Origin: an uncultured Lentisphaeria bacterium
GTDB lineage: Bacteria > Fidelibacterota > UBA8477 > JABMPR01
Direction of reading: 5' to 3'
NCBI GenBank assembly: GCA_964454335.1
Contig: CAYVVT010000002.1
Location: forward strand, 211,436 to 275,435
DNA: 64,000 bases
Position 1 is the stretch's first letter; each line of letters opens with the position of its first letter. Positions 2,663 through 64,000 of this stretch are shown here, piece after piece. The notes beneath the pieces were generated by a model. The model searched no databases. It saw only the letters and a list, made by a program, of their open reading frames with translations, and had not been told where the DNA came from. Made by a program: the position numbers and the translations under genes.

Positions 2663-3906
2663 TGGTCAGAAGATTCGGATTCATGATGGTATTGCTGTCC
2701 CTTTTCTGGAGCTGCGAGTTCTGGCCGGAGCCGGTTGCTACCGTTGAATATCGTGCATCGACCCAGCTCATTCTGGCCACAGGTGATACCACCGTGGTCG
2801 AATTTGGTCGGGACCTGGCCTCAATCTCGCTGACGAGTGGAGACTCAACCATCCTGGAGATCCTGGATATGACGGATTCGGAGATGACTCTCGTGGCCCT
2901 GGCTGAGGGAGAGACCAGGATCGAACTCGAGGGCATGTCACAGGGACAGGTCAGCGAGCTTTCTTACAACATTAAAGTGCAGACGGGTCAGCACCTCACA
3001 GTGTACGTTGATGAGGATCAGGGTTTGAACCTGTCGGATTATTTTTCTGCTGCAGCTCTCGCCGATGTGGACAGCGTGTCCATCACAGGTGCGGACGATG
3101 CCTATCTTGCAGTTTCCCTGTCCAACAACTACATGACCATGTGGCGCGGACTCTGGCCTCATGATCTGATGGTCACGGTGAGCATGTACAGCGCTGCGGA
3201 TGAATTCCTTGAGTCCGTGATATTCAATGTTGAGATCCGGGTACGCAAGGTGGTACTGGCGGAGATCTTCACCAATTCCGGTTGTGTCAATTGTCCCCAG
3301 GCCAATCATGCTATGGACAATCTGGTAGACCAGTATAACGAAGGTCTGGCGACTATCCGCTATCATGTGAGTTGGACGGATCCGAACGATCCGATGAATC
3401 TTGCGAATCCAGGCGACAGTCATGATCGGGTGATGTACTACGGCGTTTACCTGGCTCCCTGGGTCATGTTCGATTCAGAGACCATGGGCAACATCGATGA
3501 AGGTCTCTGGTCGGCGTCCATCTCCCAGCACCTCAACGAAGCAAGTCCCATCCTCATCCGTACCGAGGATGTCAACCTTTTAGGTGACAGCCTGTTGGAG
3601 ATATCCTATCAGGTCATTCCCACCGAACCGGGATTGAGTGACAATTACAGCTCCTATGCTGTTGTCACCGAAGACAGCATTGAATACGCCGGCCCCAATG
3701 GGGAGACGATCCACATGCAGGTCATGCGCGATCTTGAGATGGTCGGTGGCCTGGACCTATCCATGGAACACAGCATTGTAGACACCCTGGTGAAACCCAC
3801 GGCATATGCTGAAAATTCCCTGTTCAACTTTGTGTTTTTCCTGCAGAATGAGAATACTGGCCTGGTTGAGCAGGCTCTGACTCTAAATGCAGCAGATCTC
3901 GAGTGA
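2650..3906 (+). CDS. hypothetical lipoprotein with thioredoxin-like CxxC (CVNC) region
   Basis: Overlaps the upstream gene by 13 nt. Lipobox-like LLSLFWSC; C-terminal half has FTNSGCVNCP, reminiscent of thioredoxin-like/Omp28-type proteins (low certainty). Confidence 0.45.
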   Translation: MEILMVRRFGFMMVLLSLFWSCEFWPEPVATVEYRASTQLILATGDTTVVEFGRDLASISLTSGDSTILEILDMTDSEMTLVALAEGETRIELEGMSQGQVSELSYNIKVQTGQHLTVYVDEDQGLNLSDYFSAAALADVDSVSITGADDAYLAVSLSNNYMTMWRGLWPHDLMVTVSMYSAADEFLESVIFNVEIRVRKVVLAEIFTNSGCVNCPQANHAMDNLVDQYNEGLATIRYHVSWTDPNDPMNLANPGDSHDRVMYYGVYLAPWVMFDSETMGNIDEGLWSASISQHLNEASPILIRTEDVNLLGDSLLEISYQVIPTEPGLSDNYSSYAVVTEDSIEYAGPNGETIHMQVMRDLEMVGGLDLSMEHSIVDTLVKPTAYAENSLFNFVFFLQNENTGLVEQALTLNAADLE

Positions 3907-4352
3907 TGTCGACCCTGCACCATTTTTTTGTCCACTTTCCGGTAGCCCTCTTGCTGGTAAGCGCGGCATCCGATCTCGCCGGGGTGATCTTCAAACGTGA
4001 ATTCTTTACTCAGGTAGCCATTTTCTTGCTGGTCCTGTCAGCGTTGGGCGGCATCGCGGCTGCGGTGAGCGGGAATGCGGCAGAGGCTGGCTTGTTGGAG
4101 CAAGAACTGTTGGCTACCCAGGTACCCGCTGAGATGAAAGCGCACACCAACTGGGGAAACACCATGATCTGGGTGATCCTGTTGGTAGCGGTTGGACGTA
4201 TCTTCGCGAAGCTAGAGAAGAAATCCTGGGCTGAGCAGGGCTGGCTGTTTCCAGTTATCAACGTGCTACTTGCCATTGCCGTGGTGTATACCGGCTGGCT
4301 GGGGGGACGTTTGACCGATGGGATTTTCGACTATCTGCAAAGTTTGATGTAA
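3903..4352 (+). CDS. small integral membrane protein (about 4 TM; possibly DUF2231-like)
   Basis: 149 aa; HHFFVHFP motif followed by four hydrophobic spans; start overlaps the upstream stop. Confidence 0.4.
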   Translation: MMSTLHHFFVHFPVALLLVSAASDLAGVIFKREFFTQVAIFLLVLSALGGIAAAVSGNAAEAGLLEQELLATQVPAEMKAHTNWGNTMIWVILLVAVGRIFAKLEKKSWAEQGWLFPVINVLLAIAVVYTGWLGGRLTDGIFDYLQSLM

Positions 4353-4614
4353 CACCAATAGAAACAATATCAGTCATCACGAAGCCGCACCTCCGGTGGG
4401 GCTGTGGTGATCTCGTCAAAACGTTCCGACGACTAAAAAACCAGATTGCCACGTCCTTCACATCCCCCGCCAATCTCGGAGGATGTTCACTCCTCGCAAT
4501 GACCCAACACTAGATCATCAAAGACACCTCAGACATTGCACCAACAACTTCTGTGGTCTATATTCCAAACCGACCAGTCGGTTTGTTTATGATCGAGGGC
4601 AGGGAAGGTCAATC

Positions 4615-5235
4615 ATGACACAAAAAAGACCACGTGAAGAACGACAGCAGGAGATCCTGGAAGCAGCACTGCGGATCTTTGTCCGAAAGGGCTATGCTGA
4701 CACGCGCATGGACGACATTGTGGAGGCTACCGGCTTGAGTAAAGGCGCCATTTACCACCACTTCGCCAGCAAGCGTGAACTGTTCGTAGCCCTCATCGAG
4801 CACTGGATGGATCAGTTCGCACCCATCATGAATCCGGGGCAGCATTCAGGTAAGTCATCTGCAGATATCATCCGGATCATCGGCCGCTTTACCACCATGC
4901 TGTTCAATCGCAATCAGGACTGGTTCCTGGCTGAGCCTGAGATCTGGTCAATGGCCAAAAGGGATGAAGAGATCCAGGGGCTTGCCAGCCAGCTCTATAC
5001 ACGGATTCTGGGAGAATTCGAGACCGTCATCACCCGTGGGATCAACTATGGTGAGTTCAAAGAGGTAAACGTACGGCTGGTGGCACTTTCCATCATGACA
5101 ACGCTGCATGGCATGATCTGGTTCGTCATGTTCCAGCCCAAGGATTTCTCTATCGAGGACTATGTTGATGCAAACATGGATTTCATAATAAACGGTATTC
5201 TAACTGATAAACAGGCTGAGGAAACCCGGCTTTAA
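4615..5235 (+). CDS. TetR/AcrR-family transcriptional regulator
   Basis: The track ORF starts at 4483, but the TetR HTH (ILEAALRIFVRKGYADTRMDDIVEATGLSKGAIYHHFASKRELF) begins right after the ATG at 4615, so that is taken as the start. Sits upstream of the beta-oxidation genes. Confidence 0.8.
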   Translation: MTQKRPREERQQEILEAALRIFVRKGYADTRMDDIVEATGLSKGAIYHHFASKRELFVALIEHWMDQFAPIMNPGQHSGKSSADIIRIIGRFTTMLFNRNQDWFLAEPEIWSMAKRDEEIQGLASQLYTRILGEFETVITRGINYGEFKEVNVRLVALSIMTTLHGMIWFVMFQPKDFSIEDYVDANMDFIINGILTDKQAEETRL

Positions 5236-13675: not shown

Positions 13676-14725
13676 TCAACAGATCCTGGGCAGCTGCTCC
13701 CCAACCGGCATATCCACGATCCGGGTGGCGCCCAGACCGGTGGTCATAAACACCATTCCCGCATGGTCTTCGGTTACCTCGCCAACGATCACGGCTTCAC
13801 GGCCATTCTCATGCTGCTGCATTACCGATAACATATCGGTTGCCACATTAGACGGGACCACTGCGACAAGTTTTCCCTCGTTGGCGACATACAGCGGATC
13901 GATGCCCAAAACCTCACAGGCACCCTTGACGTCCGCCCGGACCGGGATTGCGGCCTCATCGAGCTTGACACCCACCTGGGAGCTTTTCGCAAACTCATTC
14001 AATGAGGTTGCCAGACCGCCACGGGTGGGATCGCGCATGGCGTGGATATCTTTCGACACCTTCAACATCTCGGCTACCAGTCCATTCAATGACGCCGTAT
14101 CGCTGCGGACGGTGGTTTGGAAGGATAATCCTTCACGGCTTGTCATCACCGCCATGCCATGGTCAGCCAGGGTACCGGAGACGATGACCTGGTCCCCTGG
14201 TCTCAGATTTCCTGCCGAGATATCGATACCTTCCGCCAGAACCCCAATTCCGGAGGTATTGATGAAGATCTTGTCGCAACCGCCACGGTTCACCACTTTG
14301 GTGTCTCCAGTGACTATCGTAACGCCCGATTTCTTCGCAGCTTCTTCCATGGACAGGGCAATACGATGCAGGGTCTCGATATCAAGGCCTTCCTCCAGAA
14401 TGAAGCCCACGCTCAGATAGCGTGGTTCAGCGCCACTCATGCAGACATCGTTGACGGTCCCGTTGATGGCCAGATCGCCGATATCACCTCCGGGAAAGAA
14501 AATGGGATCCACCACAAAGGTATCCGTGGTGAACGCCAACCGGGCTCCCGGGTTTTCCAGAACGGCCTGATCCTCGAGCTTATCGAGGGTCACATTCGAA
14601 AATCGGGGTAGGAAGATCTTCTCGATGAGTTCGGCTGAAAGCCGGCCGCCGGCACCGTGGGCCAATTGGACAGTGTCATGGCTCATGATGGGAACAGGAC
14701 ATGACAGGGTTTCTGGAAAATCCAT
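13676..14725 (-). CDS. hypE: hydrogenase maturation protein HypE (carbamoyl dehydratase)
   Basis: AIR-synthase-like fold; C-terminal ...GEQLPRIC tail typical of HypE; 3-nt gap after hypD. Confidence 0.9.
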   Translation of the reverse strand: MDFPETLSCPVPIMSHDTVQLAHGAGGRLSAELIEKIFLPRFSNVTLDKLEDQAVLENPGARLAFTTDTFVVDPIFFPGGDIGDLAINGTVNDVCMSGAEPRYLSVGFILEEGLDIETLHRIALSMEEAAKKSGVTIVTGDTKVVNRGGCDKIFINTSGIGVLAEGIDISAGNLRPGDQVIVSGTLADHGMAVMTSREGLSFQTTVRSDTASLNGLVAEMLKVSKDIHAMRDPTRGGLATSLNEFAKSSQVGVKLDEAAIPVRADVKGACEVLGIDPLYVANEGKLVAVVPSNVATDMLSVMQQHENGREAVIVGEVTEDHAGMVFMTTGLGATRIVDMPVGEQLPRIC

Positions 14726-14728
14726 TTT

Positions 14729-15820
14729 TCACACTTTCATGCGCTGATAACGGTAATAGGCAGCGCACGCCCCTTCACTGGAGACCATGGTAGCGCCCAA
14801 TGGTGTCTGCGGGGTACATTCCTTACCGAAGGCAGGGCATTCGTGCGGTTTCTTCAATCCCTGCAGTACGACTCCACTGATGCACAAATCTGATTCCTGG
14901 GTCTGGATATCCTCCACCAGGAATTTCTTTTCGGCATCGAAGGCAGCATACTCATCCCTGACCTTGAAGCCACTCAGGGGGATCTCGCCGATACCGCGCC
15001 ATTTCCTGTTGGAAACCTCAAAGATCCTGTTCACCAGGTCCTGGGCGGGCCGATTGCCTCCACGTTGGACTGACCGGACATATTGGTTCTCCACCATGTT
15101 CTTACCGGCCTCCAGCAGCTTCACGGTCATGAGAATGCCTTCAAGTACGTCCATGGGCTCGAAACCGGTTACGACAATGGGGACTTCATACTTTGCTGCG
15201 ATGGGTTCGTATTCCTCCCAGCCCATGACCGTACAGACATGTCCGGCGGCCAGGTAACCCTGGACCCGATTGCTGGGTGAAGAAAGCAAAGCCTCCATGG
15301 CTGGTGGTACCAGCACATGGCTCACAAGTTCACTGAAATTCGTAAGCCCAAGACTGTGGGCCTGATCGATGGCCATGGCATTTCCCGGTGCGGTGGTCTC
15401 GAAACCCACGGCAAAGAAAACGACTTCATTGTCTGGATTTTCCTGGGCGATCCTGATGGCTTCAAGGGGCGAGTAAACGGTGCGGACATCCCCACCTTCG
15501 GAACGGACCATGAACAGGTCCTTATGACTGCCGGGTACCCGGAGCATATCACCAAAGCTGGTGAAGATGACATTCTCCCGGCCGGCGATCTCGATGGCCT
15601 TGTCGATGATCTCAAGCGGAGTGACACAAACAGGACAACCAGGACCATGTACCAGCTCGATCTCTTTCGGCAGGACCTGGTCGATACCATTCCTGATGAT
15701 GCTGTGGGTCTGACCGCCACAGATCTCCATGATTACCCAGGGCTGAGTGACAGTGGCGTGGATCTCATCCAGGATCTTCTTTGCTATGGCCGGGTCGCGG
15801 AATTCGTCTAAATATTTCAT
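14729..15820 (-). CDS. hypD: hydrogenase maturation protein HypD
   Basis: Signature motifs [14 protein letters not shown] and a C-terminal Cys cluster. Confidence 0.9.
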
Positions 15821-15989
15821 AATAGCATTTACTTAAAGAGTTTATTCATCGGTCATTGCGAGGTGCGAACGTCCCCCGCTATAGTCGGGGGATGTGAGCG
15901 ACGCGGCAATCCAGTGAGGTGAACCCGGATTTGATCTTGCTAGATCGCCACTGGCTGTCCACAGGACACCCCTCGCGATGACCTTCATA

Positions 15990-16262
15990 TTAATCCAGAT
16001 TCTTCTTCTCATCATCAAACAGTCCAGCCTCGCCCGCCGCTTCCAGCACCTCATTCCAGGCATCAAAGGACTTCTGCGCTTCCTCTTCATTCAGGATTGA
16101 AAGGGCAAAACCGGCATGTACTATTGTGTATTGACCCACTTCGATCTCTGGAACGTACTCCAGACAGGCCTTGTTCACGGTACCTGAGAAGTCAATGTTG
16201 CCCATCTTGAGCCCGTTCTCCTCGAACACTTCCACCAGTTTTCCGGGAATCGCCAGACACAT
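15990..16262 (-). CDS. hypC: hydrogenase maturation chaperone HypC
   Basis: N-terminal MCLAIPGKL (conserved Cys2), 90 aa. Confidence 0.85.
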   Translation of the reverse strand: MCLAIPGKLVEVFEENGLKMGNIDFSGTVNKACLEYVPEIEVGQYTIVHAGFALSILNEEEAQKSFDAWNEVLEAAGEAGLFDDEKKNLD

Positions 16263-16339: not shown

Positions 16340-18622
16340 CTACTTATTCTCATTCTTCAATTCCTGATCCACTAAAAATCTTCGCCCGATGAGCGCCTGG
16401 CCCAGGGCAATGCCACCGTCATTGGTGGGTACCTGCGAATGGGTATATACCTCAAAATCCGCCCGTTCAAGTGCAGGAATAACATTCTCAAAGAGGAGCT
16501 GGTTCTGGAATACACCACCACTTAGCGCGACGCTATCAATACGATATTGCCGGCGGACCTTTCCGGCCAGATCCACCAGACCCTCCACCAGGGTCGCATG
16601 GAACCGTCGGCTGATCTCGGATAGGGTCAAGCCGTCCAGGATGTCATTGGCGATGGCCCTGATGAGTGGTTTGATTTTCCAGATAATGGCCGAATCTACT
16701 GTATCGAAGCAGCGATCATAGACCTCTGAATTCAGCTCCTGTCCCGCAGCCTGCATGAACTCGATGGCGGCCTGGGCTTCGTAACGAATCTCCTGCCTGC
16801 CGCCGCTCATAGCTGCCACGGCATCAAATAAGCGGCCCATACTGCTGGTGAGGACGGTCTGGAACTCGCGCTCCACCATCGTGCTCACCGCTTCGCAGTC
16901 ATGCTCCTGCAGGAATGGCAGATCAGGAACCTTTCCGTCAAAAGCCTGATGCAGGTAGGCATAGGCTATCCGCCAGGGCGCACGGATGGCGGCGTCGCCC
17001 CCGGGTAGCAGTAATGGTTCAAGATGCGCAGCTCGCTCGAAGCCATCGTAATCACCCACCAAGATCTCTCCACCCCAGATGGTTCCATCAATTCCATAGC
17101 CGGTACCGTCCAGAATGAGACCGATGACTGGCTCTTCCAGCTTGTTCTCCGCCATACAGGCTGCAAGATGAGCATGGTGGTGCTGGACTGCAAGACGGGG
17201 AATTCCTTCCTGCTGCTCCGCCCACTGCGTGGACAGATAGCGTGGGTGCATGTCGTGAACGATAAGCTCTGCAGAGCTCTCGAAGATCCTTTGGAGGTGA
17301 TCGGCGGTCAGCTTGAAAAAATCGTAGGCTTCAAGGTTTTCCAGGTCACCGATATGCTGACTCAGGAATGCGAAACGGTCTTTCAGCAAGCAGACTGTGT
17401 TCTTGAGCTCACCGCCTACCGCCAGGACAGATGGGCCGTCACTCTGTACAAACACGGGACGGGGTGCGAATCCCCGGCTGCGGCGGATTGACCGTATCAC
17501 ACCTGCAAGTTCGATGCTTACCGAATCATCCGTTCTCAGATAGATATCACGATTATGCAGCAGAAAATGGTCAGCCATACCGGAAAGTCTCGTAATCGCT
17601 TCATCGTTGTCGATGCATATGGGCTCTTCACTGTAGTTGGCGCTGGTCATCACCAGGATATCCGGTCCATGTGTCATGAGCAGGTGATGCAGTGGCGTAT
17701 AGGGCAGCATGATCCCCAGGCGGTCATTTCCCGGGGCCACCGATGGTGCCACCGCATTCGAATCCTTATGCCGCAGCAGAATGATCGGAGCCTGTATGGA
17801 TCGGAGCTGGCGTTCCTCCTGTTCACTCACATTGACAAGCCTGCGAAAAACGGCCATATCCTTCACCATAAGCGCAAAGGGTTTCTCCTCACGGCCTTTC
17901 GTCTCCCGCAGGCGGTTGACTGCGGCATCGTCACGGGCATCAACTGCCAGATGAAAGCCTCCCAGGCCCTTGATGGCAAGGATCATTCCCGTTCCCAGCA
18001 AACGCGCGGCTTCTGCGACAGGATCGACATCCTCCATCTTCTCACCCTGGTCATCGGTCAGCCAGACATGCGGTCCGCAGATGTGACAGGCATTGGGCTG
18101 GGCATGGAATCTTCTGTCCTGAGGGTCCTCGTATTCCCTGAGACATTCTGGACAGAGCTCAAAATGACGCATGGAGGTAAAGGGCCGATCGTAGGGGATA
18201 TTCTGAATGATGGTATAACGGGGACCGCAATTGGTGCAATTGATGAAAGGGTAGAGGTGGCGTCGATCGGAAGGATCGAACATCTCCCGTCGACAGTCCT
18301 CGCAGATCGCCACATCCGGTGAGATCAGGGTGCTTACTGTGACATTCGAGGAAGAGGGGATGATCCTGAAATCATCCTCGTCCTTAACAGTCATCGATTC
18401 CGATCCGATCTCGGCAATGACCGCCAGAGGAGGTGCTTCCTGCTCCAGTGTATCCACGAAACGCTGTACATTGCCGGGCTTCCCCTGAATCTCCACCAAC
18501 ACCCCCTGAGCGGTATTGCTGACCTCTCCAGTAAGCTCAAGCTGTTTTGCGAAGTTGAAAACAAAGGGTCGGAAACCGACCCCCTGGACAATGCCATTGA
18601 TATGTACTCTAAGACGTTCCAA
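16340..18622 (-). CDS. hypF: carbamoyltransferase HypF
   Basis: Acylphosphatase domain, two CxxC...CxxC zinc-finger pairs, YrdC-like and Kae1-like C-terminal domains; 760 aa. Confidence 0.9.
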   Translation of the reverse strand: MERLRVHINGIVQGVGFRPFVFNFAKQLELTGEVSNTAQGVLVEIQGKPGNVQRFVDTLEQEAPPLAVIAEIGSESMTVKDEDDFRIIPSSSNVTVSTLISPDVAICEDCRREMFDPSDRRHLYPFINCTNCGPRYTIIQNIPYDRPFTSMRHFELCPECLREYEDPQDRRFHAQPNACHICGPHVWLTDDQGEKMEDVDPVAEAARLLGTGMILAIKGLGGFHLAVDARDDAAVNRLRETKGREEKPFALMVKDMAVFRRLVNVSEQEERQLRSIQAPIILLRHKDSNAVAPSVAPGNDRLGIMLPYTPLHHLLMTHGPDILVMTSANYSEEPICIDNDEAITRLSGMADHFLLHNRDIYLRTDDSVSIELAGVIRSIRRSRGFAPRPVFVQSDGPSVLAVGGELKNTVCLLKDRFAFLSQHIGDLENLEAYDFFKLTADHLQRIFESSAELIVHDMHPRYLSTQWAEQQEGIPRLAVQHHHAHLAACMAENKLEEPVIGLILDGTGYGIDGTIWGGEILVGDYDGFERAAHLEPLLLPGGDAAIRAPWRIAYAYLHQAFDGKVPDLPFLQEHDCEAVSTMVEREFQTVLTSSMGRLFDAVAAMSGGRQEIRYEAQAAIEFMQAAGQELNSEVYDRCFDTVDSAIIWKIKPLIRAIANDILDGLTLSEISRRFHATLVEGLVDLAGKVRRQYRIDSVALSGGVFQNQLLFENVIPALERADFEVYTHSQVPTNDGGIALGQALIGRRFLVDQELKNENK

Positions 18623-58235: not shown

Positions 58236-61200
58236 ATGAGGCTCCTTTTGAATAGAATTTACAGAACCCTCGTTCCAGTGATCCTCGCAAGTCAGGTCTT
58301 TGCCGCACAGGGCCCCCTTGGTTTTGAGAAGCTTATGAATGCCTATCCGGATGTCAGGGAGAATTATGCCTGGCAGACCTATCAGCGTGGTGACTTCCTG
58401 GTGATTGGCGCTGATGCACTGATGGACAATCCCTTCATGGGTCTCTACAGGGAATTCAAGGAGCGTCAGGGTTTCCGAGTGACGATGACGGGTCTCAGTG
58501 AGGCAGGGAACACCTCTGCCGCTATCAAGGATTACATTGCCGATTTCTACAGCAGTCATGCACTGGAATATGTACTGCTGGTAGGGGATGTCACCGGGGC
58601 CTTTGCATTGCCCAGCTATAGCTTCGGACCGGAAAACGATGTCACCGATCTGCCGTATGTGCTGCTGGAAGGGTCCGGCGACGATTATTTTCCGGAAGCC
58701 TTCATCGGTCGCTGGCCGGTAGATACGCAATCAGACCTGGCGGTGATCGTCAACAAGACCATTCAATATGCCTCAAATCCCTACATGGGTTCTGATTGGA
58801 TGGACAAGGCCCTGGTCGTTGCCGGGAATTACGCCGATACGGGGACGATCCTCACACCGGTATGGACATCATACTGGTTAAGGGATGAACTTGATGATTA
58901 CGGATACACACAGGTCGATACCGTATTCTTCCCGCCGGTGACCCAGCCAACTGACGTTCTCAACTCCTGGAACTCGGGGGTGGGGATCGTGAATTACCGA
59001 GGATGGGGTGATGCCCATGGCTGGCATTATCCCCATTTCCATGTATCAGATTTTGATGAAGGCAGCCTGTCCAATGGTTTCCAGCTACCTATCGTGTTCA
59101 GCTTCGTCTGTGGAACAGGCAAGTTTGACAGTTCCATCGATCCATCCTTCTGTGAAGCCATGCTAACCCTGGGGACCTTTACCGCTCCTGCAGGCGCTGT
59201 GGCGGTGGTAGCGCCTTCTGATCTGCATACCCGCACTAAATTCAACAATGCCCTGAACACAACCCTGTGGGATGCCCTGCTGGAGGGACGCGCCAACGAA
59301 CTGGGGCCAGCACTACTGGCCTGTAAGTTCGGATTCCTCAACGAGTTCACCGATCAGACCGGGCCCGGGGAGATGGCAGAATTCTACTATCATACCTACA
59401 ATATCATAGGCGATCCCAGCCTGCCCATCTGGTTGGGAACACCGGATATTATCGATATCAGCGCCGAGGACCTGGGACCGGTGTTCTGGGACTCAGGCTT
59501 GATAACCATGACCAGCTCTGAACTACCCGAAGGCGTTTTCGCACTGCGTCATGGTGAGGAACTGGTTGGCGCAGGACGCTGGACCGATGGGAACATCCGA
59601 ATCTATCGATTTGACGGCCATGCCTTCTACGATCCCGAGAAGGAATCCGAAGCCCTGGAGATCACCCTCAACGTTCCGGGTCATGTCCCCCTCACGCTGG
59701 AGGTCATGCCGGAGACTGGCGCTGAACAATGTTTTGCAGGATTTGCTGAGTCACTGTACCCGGGGATCGACTCCTGGTCTCTCCAGGTGGATAACCATGC
59801 TGCAGCGAGCGTGGATGCAAGCGTGGGTATCAGCATTCCGGGAACGGATTACAATCATGATTTTGGAACAGTCACCATTCCGGCCCAGACCACACTGACC
59901 CTGTCACCCCTCTCGGCGCCCGTTATCCCCCTGGGAACTCGCGAGCAGGTGATTGAGATCAGCATCGATGGTGTTACCCGCAGCGCTGCCATTCCTCTAG
60001 CTATGGTCCATGCTGATATCGAGCTTGATTTTGGAGAGATGCTGCGTCCCATCCCCGGTGAATCCTTTGAAGTAGACCTGAGCGGCGTTCTGGTGGGCAT
60101 GCCGGTTTCAGCACTGGATCTGGATGTTAGTCTTTCCAGTCCTGCAGAATTCGCAAGTCTTGATGACATCAGCGGAAGCGCCACCCTTTCCACCGCCGGT
60201 GAACTGGTCTTTGAGGATGCCCGTTTTTCCGGGAGCATCTCTGATATTGCCCCGGGCAGCCGTTTACCGCTGCATTTTGATTTTACCCTGGCCGGGCAGT
60301 CGGAATCCTTTCATCAAGCGGTATTCTCAGTGTTGGTGGGCAGCGTGAGCAGTACCGATCCCACACCACCCTGCGAGGCAGGATATTGGGCCTACGACAA
60401 CACCGATGTGGACTTTGCCCAAGCACCTGAGTATAACTGGCTTGATCTATCCGAGGAAGGTGGAGCAACCCATGTCCTGCTGGGTGATGATGACCACACG
60501 CTGGTGGACCTGCCCTTCACATTCAGATATTTTGGTGTTGACTACAACAATCTGACGATCAATTCCAACGGCTGGGCAGCCTTCGGTCCGGATTACATCA
60601 ACTATTTCCGGAACTGGTCGATCCCCATGCCTCTGGGTGCTGATGCCATGATGGCACCATTCTGGGACGACCTTGACAATGACAGTCTGGTAGCCGGGCA
60701 GGAACAACCGGTACCCATCGATATCTACTACTACCAACAAATCGGCGATCCAGGGGCTTTTATCGTACAATGGGATGAGATCTACAATGGCTTTGGTGAC
60801 CGCAGCTATACCGAAACATTTCAGCTGCTGCTGTACGATCCCGCCTCGATGGTGGCGGAGGATGGAAACGGCATCATCGAATTCCAGTACAGCGAAGTAC
60901 ACGATGTGGATCAGATCAACAATTACACCACAGTTGGCATCGAGAGCCCCGATCAGAATGATGGGCTCCAGTATGTCTACAATCGGGTCTATGCACCCGG
61001 GGCTACAGAACTCGGTGCAGGCCTGGCTATACGATTTACCACGGATCCACCGGATAACTACTGGGCTTCGATCAGTGAAGCCCTGCCATTACCGCAGGTA
61101 TTCAAGCTTGGAATGCCCTACCCGAACCCATTCAATCCTGAAGTGTCGATTCCGTTAGAGATCAAGGGTACCGGCCATGTATCCGTTGCCATCTACAATC

Positions 61201-61358: not shown

Positions 61359-61604
61359 TTCGGAGCACATTCCCTCATCCCCGGACAGACAATCATCGAT
61401 CCAGCGTTCAGGTATCAAAAACTGGCTCCAGACGGGTTCAACACAAGCCGTTGAAAAGGTATTCAGACAGCTGCTCAAGAGTGGTGTAAGTCAGTCAGAA
61501 CATGGGTTTACCCATGGGGCTCCATTAAAATGTTAGATTGCCATCGTACCAGTGGAGTTCTTCGTCTTCTATATTCTCCGAACGTGAAAAGGATAGAAAG
61601 GTTC

Positions 61605-64000
61605 ATGATGTATATGAGAGTGGTTAGTGTGCTCACCTTTTTCTCTCTGGCCGGCGGCTTGATCGCTGCCGAAGCTCCCCTGGCTGCCGAGGGTCGACTT
61701 GTCATTCAGGATTTTGATGAATACCAGTCCACCTTCATGGTCAATATGCCTGATTGGGAACTTGGTTCAGTCACACTGCAAAGTGGGGAATATCAACGCA
61801 TTCTAAGCGATCTCAGTGGTGAGATCAGACTCACCGGGGCCCCGCACTTACCAACCACCAGTACTCTCGTAGCGGTACCTGAAGAAGGTGCACTTCACGT
61901 TGAATACAGCTATGCTGGTGAGACGATCCTGAGTGACGTGGACCTGGTCCCATTCCAGGCCGTACAGCTTGAGGCGGAGGGAGTCGCCCGTCAGCAGCTT
62001 CCCGACCGGGAGATCTATCAGACCGACGCCTGGTATCCGGCGGAACCGGTCTTCCTGCACGATCGCGCAAAACTCAGAGACATAGCACTGGTGACCGTTG
62101 AGGTTACACCCTTCCAGTACAATCCCGTGCGACGGGAACTCAGGGTTCTGGAAGGTATGCAGGTAGCCGTCAGCCATGACGAGGCACTGCATGCACCCAA
62201 TAAGCCCGTTTCACGATTCTTTGAACCCATTTATCAGTCACTGTTCCCCAACTATCCCATGGTCATGCCAGATCATTATCAGACACCTTCTATCCTTTAC
62301 ATCACACCCAATAATGCGACGGTTGATCTGATCATGGAGACACTAGTGGATTGGAGGCATGAAAAAGGCTTCGAGGTCCATGTAGCCAATACCGCATTGA
62401 CGGGCAGTTCAAACTCTTCCATCAAATCCTATATCCAGACCGCCTATGACACCTGGCCGAATCCACCTGAATTCGTATGTCTGGTTGGGGATGTTGGCGG
62501 CGGCCTGGGTATTCCAACCTTCTACGAGGGTTGGTCCTGGTACAACGGTGAAGGTGACCATCCCTTTGTCCACCTCGACGGTGGAGATTATATCAGTGAC
62601 GCCTTCGTGGGACGATTGACATTCTCATCCACCTCCCAGCTGACGAATATCATCGCCAAGATCGTCAACTATGAGAAACAGCCATATGTAGATGACACAA
62701 ACTGGTTTACTCGTGCCTTGCTGGTGGGTGATCCCTCGGCTTCCGGCCTCTCCACCATCATGACCAATCGCTTCATCGATGAGTTGTCCCAGTACCATGG
62801 TTACAGCAACAACTTCCTGGTATTCAGCGGATCATTCGAAGGTCAGATGGCATCCGGCCTTAACGCCGGCGTCTCCTTCTTCAATTATCGCGGCTATCTG
62901 GGTATGAGCGGCTGGGACAACAGTAATACGAACTCCCTCTCCAATGGTCCTAAACTGCCATTCGTGACCATTCTGACCTGCGGTACAGGCGGTTTTGCCG
63001 GCAGTTCGCGTGCGGAGCAGTTCCTGAAGGTCGGAACAGCAGCAGTACCCAAGGGTGGTATAGGTGCCGTAGGAACGGCCACCTCTGGAACGCATACGCT
63101 ATACAACAATTGCGTCGCAGGTGGGATCTATCAGGGCATTTTCAACGAGAAGATCTATTACGCAGGTGCAGCGCTTGAGCGTGGCCGCCTGAATCTCAAC
63201 ATGAGCTATCCCAGCAATAACAACAATTTCGTCGAGATCTTCTCACACTGGAACAACCTCATGGGTGATCCGGTGACAGAATTCTGGACCGGCATACCCG
63301 GTAACCTGACCGTCACAGTTCCGGCTGAACTACCCGTAGCCAGCCGTTGGCTCAGCGTGTTGGTTGAAAATGATCTGGGACTACCAGTCAAAGACTCCTG
63401 GGTCACAGCCCTACAGGAAGGCGACTCGGTCTTCGTTTCCGCCTATACGGATGAGAACGGTGTTGCCCAGCTCAGTCTAGAAGGTTTGGTAGAGGGCGAC
63501 CTCACCGTTACGGTGACCAAGCATAATTTCATACCGAGCCAGAGCACCGTCGGCGTTGCGGCTGGCAATGTCGCAGTTCTCATCGACGATGTAACACTTG
63601 TCGAGTCATCGGGTAATGGTGACGGGATCGTCAACGCTGCTGAAAGTGCCGACCTGACCTATTCAGTATTGAACAGCGCAGATACCACTGTGAATGATGT
63701 TACCATCCTGGTGACCCACGAGGATGGCACCGTGCTCTCGGATTTCTACCTCTCATCACTGGATGCGTCCGAGCTCCACACATCTTCACCAATCAATATC
63801 GACATACCTGCTGACTACCCCGGGGTAGCTGACCTGGATGTAAAGTTCGAGATCGGGGTTGACGGTTCAGGCTGGAACGATCACCGCCGATTTGAGATCA
63901 CCGCCCCATACCTCAGCGTCATAGCCTTGAATGAAGGTGGAACTGCCATTCCCTCCTTTGATCCAGGTGAGATCACAGACCTGGTCGTCAGCCTCAAGAA
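61605..64000 (+). CDS. gingipain-like C25-family cysteine peptidase homolog, 5' part only (runs off window end)
   Basis: ATG 61605 with signal MMYMRVVSVLTFFSLAGGLIAAEA; in-frame C25 motifs FVCLVGDVGGGLGIP (from 62460) and FNYRGYLGMSGW (from 62880). No + strand ORF with a stop is listed in the track after 61358, consistent with an open frame to base 64000. Confidence 0.65.
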   Translation, partial: MMYMRVVSVLTFFSLAGGLIAAEAPLAAEGRLVIQDFDEYQSTFMVNMPDWELGSVTLQSGEYQRILSDLSGEIRLTGAPHLPTTSTLVAVPEEGALHVEYSYAGETILSDVDLVPFQAVQLEAEGVARQQLPDREIYQTDAWYPAEPVFLHDRAKLRDIALVTVEVTPFQYNPVRRELRVLEGMQVAVSHDEALHAPNKPVSRFFEPIYQSLFPNYPMVMPDHYQTPSILYITPNNATVDLIMETLVDWRHEKGFEVHVANTALTGSSNSSIKSYIQTAYDTWPNPPEFVCLVGDVGGGLGIPTFYEGWSWYNGEGDHPFVHLDGGDYISDAFVGRLTFSSTSQLTNIIAKIVNYEKQPYVDDTNWFTRALLVGDPSASGLSTIMTNRFIDELSQYHGYSNNFLVFSGSFEGQMASGLNAGVSFFNYRGYLGMSGWDNSNTNSLSNGPKLPFVTILTCGTGGFAGSSRAEQFLKVGTAAVPKGGIGAVGTATSGTHTLYNNCVAGGIYQGIFNEKIYYAGAALERGRLNLNMSYPSNNNNFVEIFSHWNNLMGDPVTEFWTGIPGNLTVTVPAELPVASRWLSVLVENDLGLPVKDSWVTALQEGDSVFVSAYTDENGVAQLSLEGLVEGDLTVTVTKHNFIPSQSTVGVAAGNVAVLIDDVTLVESSGNGDGIVNAAESADLTYSVLNSADTTVNDVTILVTHEDGTVLSDFYLSSLDASELHTSSPINIDIPADYPGVADLDVKFEIGVDGSGWNDHRRFEITAPYLSVIALNEGGTAIPSFDPGEITDLVVSLK

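Follow-up and report, generated by a model that had tools for sequence, protein, structure and literature searches.

We examined the junction between hypC and hypD in a hydrogenase maturation (hyp) operon that lies on the minus strand of a 64,000-nt stretch of contig CAYVVT010000002.1, from an uncultured bacterium that the source names of HypD homologues place in the Candidatus Marinimicrobia. We refer to this whole stretch as the window. The genes around the junction are hypF (positions 16340 to 18622), hypC (15990 to 16262; 90 aa, PF01455), hypD (14729 to 15820; 363 aa, PF01924), and hypE (13676 to 14725). The stop codon of hypC, TAA, occupies positions 15992 to 15990, and a spacer of 169 nt (15821 to 15989) separates the gene from hypD. 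An original prediction held that the other hyp junctions are tight and that this spacer is a dedicated RNA element, such as an attenuator, a processing site, or a small RNA. As a blanket statement the first claim fails, given junctions of 48 nt (hypA-hypB), 22 nt (hypB-hypF), 77 nt (hypF-hypC), and 3 nt (hypD-hypE), although the hypC-hypD spacer is indeed the longest. The prediction was right about the size, position, and folding of the spacer; what folds there is very probably a copy of a selfish, dispersed palindromic repeat.

Two 13-nt arms in the spacer, GGTCATTGCGAGG (15851 to 15863) and CCTCGCGATGACC (15971 to 15983), are complementary with one non-Watson-Crick position, and between them lies a 7-bp hairpin formed by TCCCCCG (15872 to 15878), a 7-nt loop, and CGGGGGA (15886 to 15892), as had been predicted. 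On the mRNA-sense (minus) strand, RNA structure prediction gave the spacer a fold of -64.7 kcal/mol (z = -3.8), and on the antisense (plus) strand a fold of -70.3 kcal/mol (z = -5.5). None of 200 dinucleotide shuffles folded as well on either strand, which confirms that the spacer is structured and not random. The mismatch between the arms, described as compatible with a G-U pair, is a U.G wobble only on the plus strand, the complement of the hyp mRNA; on the mRNA strand, the two bases are C and A and stay unpaired in the predicted structure. Rfam 15, invoked as a check on the RNA element, lent it no support, with no gathering-level match in the whole window and, near the spacer, only chance matches to snoRNAs (E ≥ 0.09). 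A scan for promoters and terminators found no terminator-like site and one chance-level promoter-like site, on the antisense strand.

Most of the spacer consists of a 131-nt inverted head-to-head dimer (copy A, 15852 to 15982) with GTC tags facing outward, which aligns without gaps to a second copy of the same repeat in the opposite orientation (copy B, 4373 to 4503). The two were linked by a repeat search, in which 15851 to 15911 pairs with 4444 to 4504 at 82% complementarity, and they share an identical layout of a 60-nt module, a 31-nt spacer, and a 40-nt module. The left module of copy A (15852 to 15911, plus strand), defined by its fold as single-stranded DNA (ssDNA) and by its match to the pattern GTCATTGCGAGG..ACGNGGCAATC, begins with the GTC tag (15852 to 15854). 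Its basal stem, ATTGC (15855 to 15859) paired with GCAAT (15906 to 15910), encloses a nested hairpin at approximately 15870 to 15893 around the TCCCCCG/CGGGGGA core stem, and an invariant C (15911) follows the palindrome, then CA, giving a CCA tail. After the central spacer (15912 to 15942) comes the right module (15943 to 15982, minus strand), supported by its ssDNA fold (z = -3.3) and by covariation. On its own strand this module reads GTC-ATCGC-GAGGGG-[TGTCC TGT GGACA]-GCCAGTG-GCGAT-C, and its basal stem, ATCGC/GCGAT, differs from ATTGC/GCAAT by a compensatory change. Measured from the hypC stop codon, the 13-nt arm begins after 6 nt (15983) and the GTC tag after 7 nt (15982); the hypD ATG lies 30 nt past the other arm (15851) and 31 nt past the edge of the element (15852).

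Copy B is built from a 60-nt module (4444 to 4503, minus strand), a spacer (4413 to 4443), and a 40-nt module (4373 to 4412, plus strand) with the stem ATCAC/GTGAT. The 60-nt modules of the two copies are 82% identical, the spacers only about 32%, which is the random level, and the 40-nt modules have kept their shape and not their sequence. All four window modules fold as ssDNA into the same hairpin, a basal stem with a nested hairpin, and all four have GTC directly 5′ of the palindrome and C directly 3′ of it. The neighbors of copy B are a DUF2231 membrane-protein gene (3903 to 4352, plus strand) and a TetR gene (start at approximately 4614, plus strand) that heads a beta-oxidation cluster and has no relation to hydrogenase maturation. 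The longest open reading frame (ORF) of this TetR gene (4483 to 5235, plus strand) starts within copy B; its TetR_N domain begins only at residue 58, and the gene more likely starts at the ATG near 4614. The repeat thus inflates ORF calls.

Comparison with related genomes indicates that the element is an insertion. It is present in all six contigs that encode a 100% identical HypD, and hypD and hypE are intact and identical in these contigs, which come from six samples; therefore, the insertion is tolerated. The original prediction had looked to conservation of the spacer in relatives, and it is not conserved: in the closest ones found, three Marinimicrobia with 83% HypD identity (L127, L128, and L129), hypC and hypD have 4 nt (TTGA) in common. 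Because of this overlap, the element is an insertion specific to the lineage and not an ancestral part of the operon. In another Marinimicrobia relative (L130/L131), a YefM-YoeB toxin-antitoxin pair (PhdYeFM_antitox/YoeB_toxin; L130, 1966 to 2480) lies between hypC and hypD, so this junction accepts selfish DNA. One further contig, with a HypD of 87% identity (P0002), begins 110 nt upstream of hypD, and no hypC was called on it.

We then scanned for the pattern GTCATTGCGAGG-N25-55-ACGNGGCAATC with one genome per species. At least 120 genome stretches match it, and the matches listed include Bacteroidota, Chloroflexota, Alpha-, Beta-, and Gammaproteobacteria, Patescibacteria, Bacillota, Spirochaetota, Synergistota, Ignavibacteriae, Zixibacteria, Nitrospirota, Armatimonadota, and others. 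Among these listed matches, 75 of 128 distinct heads are followed within 260 nt by a CTCGCAATGAC-like tail, giving 75 full elements from other genomes, mostly 90 to 220 nt long, with the same architecture as the window copy. A looser module definition (GTC-AT-xyz-GA ... z'y'x'-AT-C), applied to the repeat-bearing loci that we fetched, found 311 modules, compared to 2 in shuffled sequence. Modules run from 22 nt (e.g., GTCATTGCGAGCGAAGCGAAGCAATC) up to about 100 nt and also occur singly and in tandem. They share one plan: the tag GTC; a basal stem of 5 bp (ATTGC/GCAAT) that opens with AT and closes with AT, its halves 30 to 50 nt apart; a small conserved internal loop (GAG... / ...GYG); a nested hairpin that varies freely; and the invariant C past the palindrome. 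In the 311 modules, GTC and the final C are part of the search definition. The base before GTC is T in 148 modules, C in 132, G in 16, and A in 15, i.e., T or C in 280 of 311 (90%).

With genes called by a heuristic ORF method, 45 family members fall between co-directional genes, 13 between convergent genes, and 4 between divergent genes; of the 45, 29 have one orientation and 16 the other. Direct repeats of 4 to 6 nt flanking the elements are not enriched above chance in 61 elements, so there are no target-site duplications. The palindrome extends outward by the tag base, as T|A in 25 elements and C|G in 18. Around copy A itself, the minus strand has ATGAA directly before the element (15984 to 15988), again 2 nt after it (15845 to 15849), and once more as the start of hypD (ATGAAA; 15816 to 15820). 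This resembles a duplicated target that includes the original hypD start, an idea that we rejected because the family flanks show no excess of direct repeats.

When the 3,598 ORFs of the repeat-bearing loci were clustered all versus all, only generic families emerged, such as response regulators and ABC ATPases, and no recurrent neighbor of the gene-less copies. The genes enclosed by two repeats in L046, L037, and L026 are ordinary ones (a NifU-like gene, a hypothetical gene, and a Rieske oxygenase gene) and do not encode transposases. A literature search for the literal strings GTCATTGCGAG or CTCGCAATGAC returned unrelated primers only, and a blastn search of the element against plasmids had no match. 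A metagenome scan with the subfamily pattern GGGGGATGTGANNGACGNGGCAATC gave two unrelated, chance-like matches and did not recover the source contig itself. The head pattern is also present on 16 viral contigs (IMG/VR; L148 to L163). On one of them (L151), two direct copies of the motif 5.8 kb apart bracket a block of capsid, portal, and terminase genes, and on another (L148), motif copies bracket a cytosine methylase gene and helix-turn-helix genes. With viral contigs carrying copies 6 to 7 kb apart, we considered that filamentous prophages might use the repeat as an integration site, as they do in Neisseria, and abandoned the idea given the capsid, portal, and terminase genes inside L151.

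Which of the helices in the element is conserved was assessed from covariation. Since the search pattern had set the left half of every dimer in advance, only the right half could vary freely. Among the right halves of 57 dimers, the stem is ATTGC/GCAAT in 40, ATCGC/GCGAT in 8, ATTAC/GTAAT in 2, and ATCAC/GTGAT in 2, with a wobble in 2 and a mismatch in 3. Where a terminal arm departs from the consensus, its partner within the same half changes too, and the other half remains ATTGC/GCAAT. On a block alignment, the structure made of local stems is 98.3% paired, with 10 double-change cells and a covariation score of 0.158, compared to 0.086, a level that none of 500 shuffles reached. For the long-range structure, no compensatory change is seen and the inner helix contains mismatches, with the qualification that its 5′ partners were fixed by the search and were unable to covary. 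Compensatory changes, which the original prediction had proposed as a check, therefore support the short stem within each module and not the 13-bp helix across the spacer. Because arm deviations are compensated inside the same half, what is conserved is each half's own hairpin, and the 13-bp helix arises from two related modules facing each other.

The nearest characterized relatives of these modules belong to the Ssn system of Chenal et al. 2025 (PMC11893778). Ssn proteins are small, single-domain GIY-YIG proteins (cd10448), of which SsnA, a 94-aa nuclease, binds and cuts the Neisseria repeat NTS (CGTCATTCCCGCG..GCGGGAATCYRG) as ssDNA; duplex DNA and RNA are not substrates (PMC11893778). By mutagenesis, cleavage needs the three nucleotides before the palindrome and binding needs the C that follows it, the gene stands in an NTS-ssnA-NTS arrangement, and bacterial ssnA homologues are flanked by "Ssn-related motifs" (SRM) (PMC11893778). 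The window modules likewise have GTC just 5′ of an AT...AT palindrome and then an invariant C, and both families consist of hairpins in many copies, rarely within genes, that form motif-ssn-motif units. They differ in that the modules described here have a 5-bp basal stem, an internal loop, and a nested hairpin of 5 to 50 nt, whereas NTS has an 8- to 9-bp stem and a short loop. The window host also belongs to the Marinimicrobia.

A physical link between this module subtype and Ssn homologues emerged from the fetched loci. Two of them (L074 and L079) carry small GIY-YIG genes of one family 30 to 120 nt from modules, and the L079 gene has an inverted GTCATTGCGAGG...GGACGTGGCAATC module on either side. 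As a blind test, we chose three homologues of the L079 protein (P0173, P0193, and P0240; loci L138 to L144) without knowledge of their flanks. All three genes are flanked on both sides by inverted modules with tags outward, of the form tGTCATTGCGAGG[short hairpin]CGTGGCAATCTCC in five of six flanks (the GTCATTGCGAGG[hairpin]CGTGGCAATC type) and with a compensated ATTCC/GGAAT stem in the sixth. Over their full length, the flanked proteins L141 and L079 are 44% and 51% identical, respectively, to the SsnA orthologue of N. gonorrhoeae, a 94-aa GIY-YIG ORF located among a dozen NTS repeats. Their only Pfam match is PF01541, and solved structures yielded only one weak match for an Ssn homologue, the UPF0213 protein BH0048 (1ZG2).

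Units consisting of a module, ssn, and an inverted module occupy three junctions of the conserved gene series dnaN-S4-recF-gyrB-gyrA: gyrB/gyrA (L138, 701 to 991, annotated as Oscillospiraceae), S4/recF (L139, 701 to 991), and dnaN/S4 (L141, 701 to 994). Three different junctions are the pattern that would be expected of a mobile unit. Ssn homologues on Planktothrix and Spirosoma plasmids have module variants of their own (ATTCT, ATCCT, and ATCCC stems), which would fit a nuclease and a hairpin that evolve together. On the Planktothrix agardhii plasmid NZ_LR882964.1 (L146, 18456 to 19510), an Ssn homologue that shares 68% identity with the L141 protein sits between an MmeI-type restriction-modification gene and DISARM drmA, in what may be a defense island. 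Arrays of module variants specific to this homologue (TGTCATTCTGAG..AGAATC and TGTCATCCTGAA..AGGATC) lie around it.

Other observations concern the GIY-YIG genes themselves. The replicon that holds the SsnA orthologue among NTS repeats (NZ_CP119140.1, L145; 2.17 Mb, Neisseria gonorrhoeae) is listed as a plasmid in PLSDB and is evidently a chromosome. Most Ssn-like proteins found as L079 homologues are known only from contigs of 500 to 2,000 nt, as expected if flanking high-copy hairpins break metagenome assemblies; the contig of HypD P0002, with its end 110 nt upstream of hypD, would fit the same pattern. A GIY-YIG protein from another locus (L025) was tried as a query and set aside: it belongs to a different subfamily, adjoining or overlapping tRNA-Leu(CAA), and its homologues (L134 to L137) lack GTC-AT modules. 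Genes of this subfamily encode proteins of about 80 to 95 aa (L134, 1501 to 1740; L135, 1501 to 1785; L025, 7237 to 7524), occur in Parcubacteria and Bipolaricaulota, and have tRNA-like half sequences upstream. The member from Omnitrophica (L136) has tRNA-Met/Val genes around it, and L137 yielded no tRNA.

Weighing these results, we consider that the hypC-hypD spacer is a copy of a selfish palindromic Ssn-type repeat found in many phyla and not a hyp regulatory RNA, with a probability of roughly 80%. That the structure was selected as a cis-acting hyp RNA, with the long-range helix and inner hairpin serving regulation as an attenuator, RNase processing site, or embedded small RNA, would account for its very stable mRNA-strand fold, better than that of shuffles, and for its position within an operon, at a junction whose two genes are usually coupled in translation. 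The same element is missing from this junction in relatives, and its family, copy B included, recurs between unrelated genes and across phyla, in no fixed orientation. The antisense strand folds better than the mRNA strand, on which the arm mismatch is C.A; covariation backs the local stems and not the long-range stem; neither an Rfam match nor a terminator-like site was found; and SsnA, the characterized partner of the nearest known family, binds ssDNA and not RNA (PMC11893778). On this evidence, a dedicated RNA element is very improbable. A selfish repeat that has since been given a role at the RNA level is a different matter, as it does not exclude, and is compatible with, an origin as an Ssn-type repeat. 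Such a role might consist of shielding the hypABFC transcript from 3′ exonucleases, slowing ribosome release at the hypC stop codon, or relaying ribosomes to hypD through a 48-codon ORF (15842 to 15988, minus strand) that spans the entire element and is called as a gene in two contigs (L001 and L004). The geometry is suggestive: the outer stem begins 6 nt downstream of the hypC stop codon, the ATG of the ORF follows that stop codon after 1 nt (TAA-T-ATG), and its TAA lies 21 nt ahead of the hypD ATG. Repetitive extragenic palindromes (REPs) within 15 nt of a stop codon have been discussed as modulators of translation, and REPs as stabilizers of mRNA (PMC12306157, PMC3733652); the insertion in hyp is, moreover, tolerated in six samples. 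Nevertheless, a frame of 48 codons has about a 10% chance of being open in any one frame, which is not significant, the ORF has no Pfam match, and copy B is not in an equivalent position. Most likely the repeat produces this ORF as an artifact; at most, the frame is translated as a "relay." We regard an acquired role in hyp expression as rather unlikely.

The remaining alternatives accept a mobile repeat and differ in what moves it. Inverted doublets of REPs (REPINs) are mobilized by REP-associated tyrosine transposases (RAYTs), Y1 HUH transposases of the IS200 type, and like the window element they are intergenic, make two inverted hairpins into a larger palindrome, leave no target-site duplication, carry a short 5′ tag on each hairpin (PMC6006769), and, as in bacterial interspersed mosaic elements (BIMEs), spread beside a single-copy protein gene flanked by repeats. 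Their tag is GTAG or GTGG and their partner an HUH Y1 transposase, whereas the window family has (Y)GTC-AT and a GIY-YIG nuclease (PMC6006769, PMC3733652). In the survey of Di Nocera et al., CGTC repeats were not found to flank any tyrosine transposase (PMC3733652), the genes enclosed by modules in the blind test encode GIY-YIG proteins, and small GIY-YIG genes were the only recurrent neighbor family in the fetched loci, with no profile search aimed at Y1 transposases made there or in the window. A REPIN in the strict sense is accordingly improbable. A miniature inverted-repeat transposable element (MITE) of the classical kind, i.e., an insertion sequence shortened by deletion, with 13-bp terminal inverted repeats and a DDE transposase to mobilize it, would match the inverted termini, the size of about 130 nt, and the presence/absence polymorphism. 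It is the least credible of these alternatives: flanking direct repeats (k = 4 to 6) are at chance level in 61 elements, the "terminal inverted repeats" belong to hairpin modules that are also found singly and in tandem, and no transposase family recurs in the fetched loci. Transcribed MITEs and REPs (NEMIS/Correia, ERIC, and E. coli REPs near stop codons) do offer a parallel in being palindromic repeats that sit within operons, are co-transcribed, and fold (PMC3733652, PMC12306157). Such repeats can stabilize or destabilize flanking mRNA or affect translation termination (PMC3733652, PMC12306157). The window element differs from them in that its termini are not of the DDE type and no target site, TA or other, is duplicated.

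A further likeness is to the CGTC-tagged REPs of Di Nocera et al. 2013, four families, Neisseria dRS3 and Rickettsia RPE-4/RPE-6 included, that have a CGTC or TGTC tag, a stem of 8 to 9 bp starting from AT, a loop of 4 to 5 nt, and a 3-nt tail near CCA (PMC3733652). They occur mostly as tags-out dimers 20 to 100 bp apart, between co-directional or convergent genes, with no associated transposase (PMC3733652). The repeat family described here has T or C before GTC in 90% of modules, and it shares AT at stem positions 1 and 2, location between co-directional or convergent genes, and the lack of a known associated transposase. Both window copies are also tags-out dimers (head to head, with 31-nt spacers), as well as heterodimers with different stems, and the left module has the CCA tail. 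The differences are a stem of 5 bp with a large, structured "loop" in the window family, outside the 8- to 9-bp stem and 4- to 5-nt loop of the published families, and the GGTC or AGTC tags of the window modules. We compared the ATTGCGAG stem with the descriptions of the four families (PMC3733652).

Several points count against assigning the window element to the Ssn-type repeats. The published SRM search sequence (HGTCWYN(0-2)YYVSBRHN(0-5)WNVSBRGN(0-2)RNCYNB) matches the NTS control, but it matches no window module, no L141 module, and not even the simple GTCATTGCGAGCGAAGCGAAGCAATC form. The base before GTC is G in three of the four window modules (GGTC in three, AGTC in one), a base found there in only 16 of 311 family modules. 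Two copies were seen in the 64 kb of the window, and searches with tblastn and with a hidden Markov model of six Ssn homologues found no ssn homologue there. Mobilization by Ssn is put forward as a hypothesis even in PMC11893778. The window copies, which have diverged from each other and carry the rare G, may be old and inactive.

As an Ssn-type repeat, the element would be a 131-nt non-coding palindrome that was inserted into a hypC-hypD junction with an original overlap of 4 nt. It would represent the gene-less form of the module-ssn-inverted module unit, comparable in this respect to a MITE or a REPIN. We infer that its hairpins act at the ssDNA level, during replication, during repair, or in incoming DNA, as sites for recognition and cleavage by Ssn, and that the hyp copy is selfish or neutral. 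If transcribed in the hyp mRNA, the element would still fold, placing a very stable structure 6 nt past the hypC stop codon and 30 nt ahead of the hypD start in place of an overlap that would couple the two genes, and it may affect expression as a by-product. Any such effect on hyp expression, through the stable structure and the lost translational coupling of hypC and hypD, is probably a tolerated side effect.

In kind, the element is ordinary; what is new is the nested-hairpin GTCATTGCGAGG subtype, its link to Ssn homologues, and the fact that the published search motif overlooks it. A more far-reaching and tentative possibility, which we think worth stating despite doubt, is that module-ssn-module units and gene-less dimers are the autonomous and non-autonomous forms of an unrecognized class of bacterial mobile elements. 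The "transposase" of this class would be a GIY-YIG single-strand nuclease of about 95 aa, its movement would proceed through ssDNA without target duplications, and it would be spread across most phyla, with the GTCATTGCGAGG...GGCAATC nested-hairpin subtype missed by SRM searches.

Elsewhere in the window, long direct repeats with a period of 4,581 nt (44451 to 52054) are about 70% identical over at least 300 nt in several segments, with a third partial copy at approximately 60620 to 60681. The ORFs of this region form a 13-member family that includes an 822-aa ORF at 61530 to 63998, and the repeats look like tandem paralogous large genes.

For the hyp operon, these results mean the loss of a candidate riboregulator, as the structure between hypC and hypD is a passenger repeat. 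For genome scans more generally, a strongly folding intergenic palindrome should be tested for dispersal first. The repeat also accounts for recurrent spurious small ORFs and for contig breaks in metagenome assemblies. For the family, a very widespread module, found in at least 120 genome stretches that include candidate phyla, is now tied to the recently described Ssn nucleases through a subtype that the published SRM search motif misses. The clean presence/absence cases, namely the hypC-hypD junction and, for the gene-carrying unit, the three junctions of dnaN-recF-gyrB-gyrA, could be used for testing whether Ssn drives mobility.

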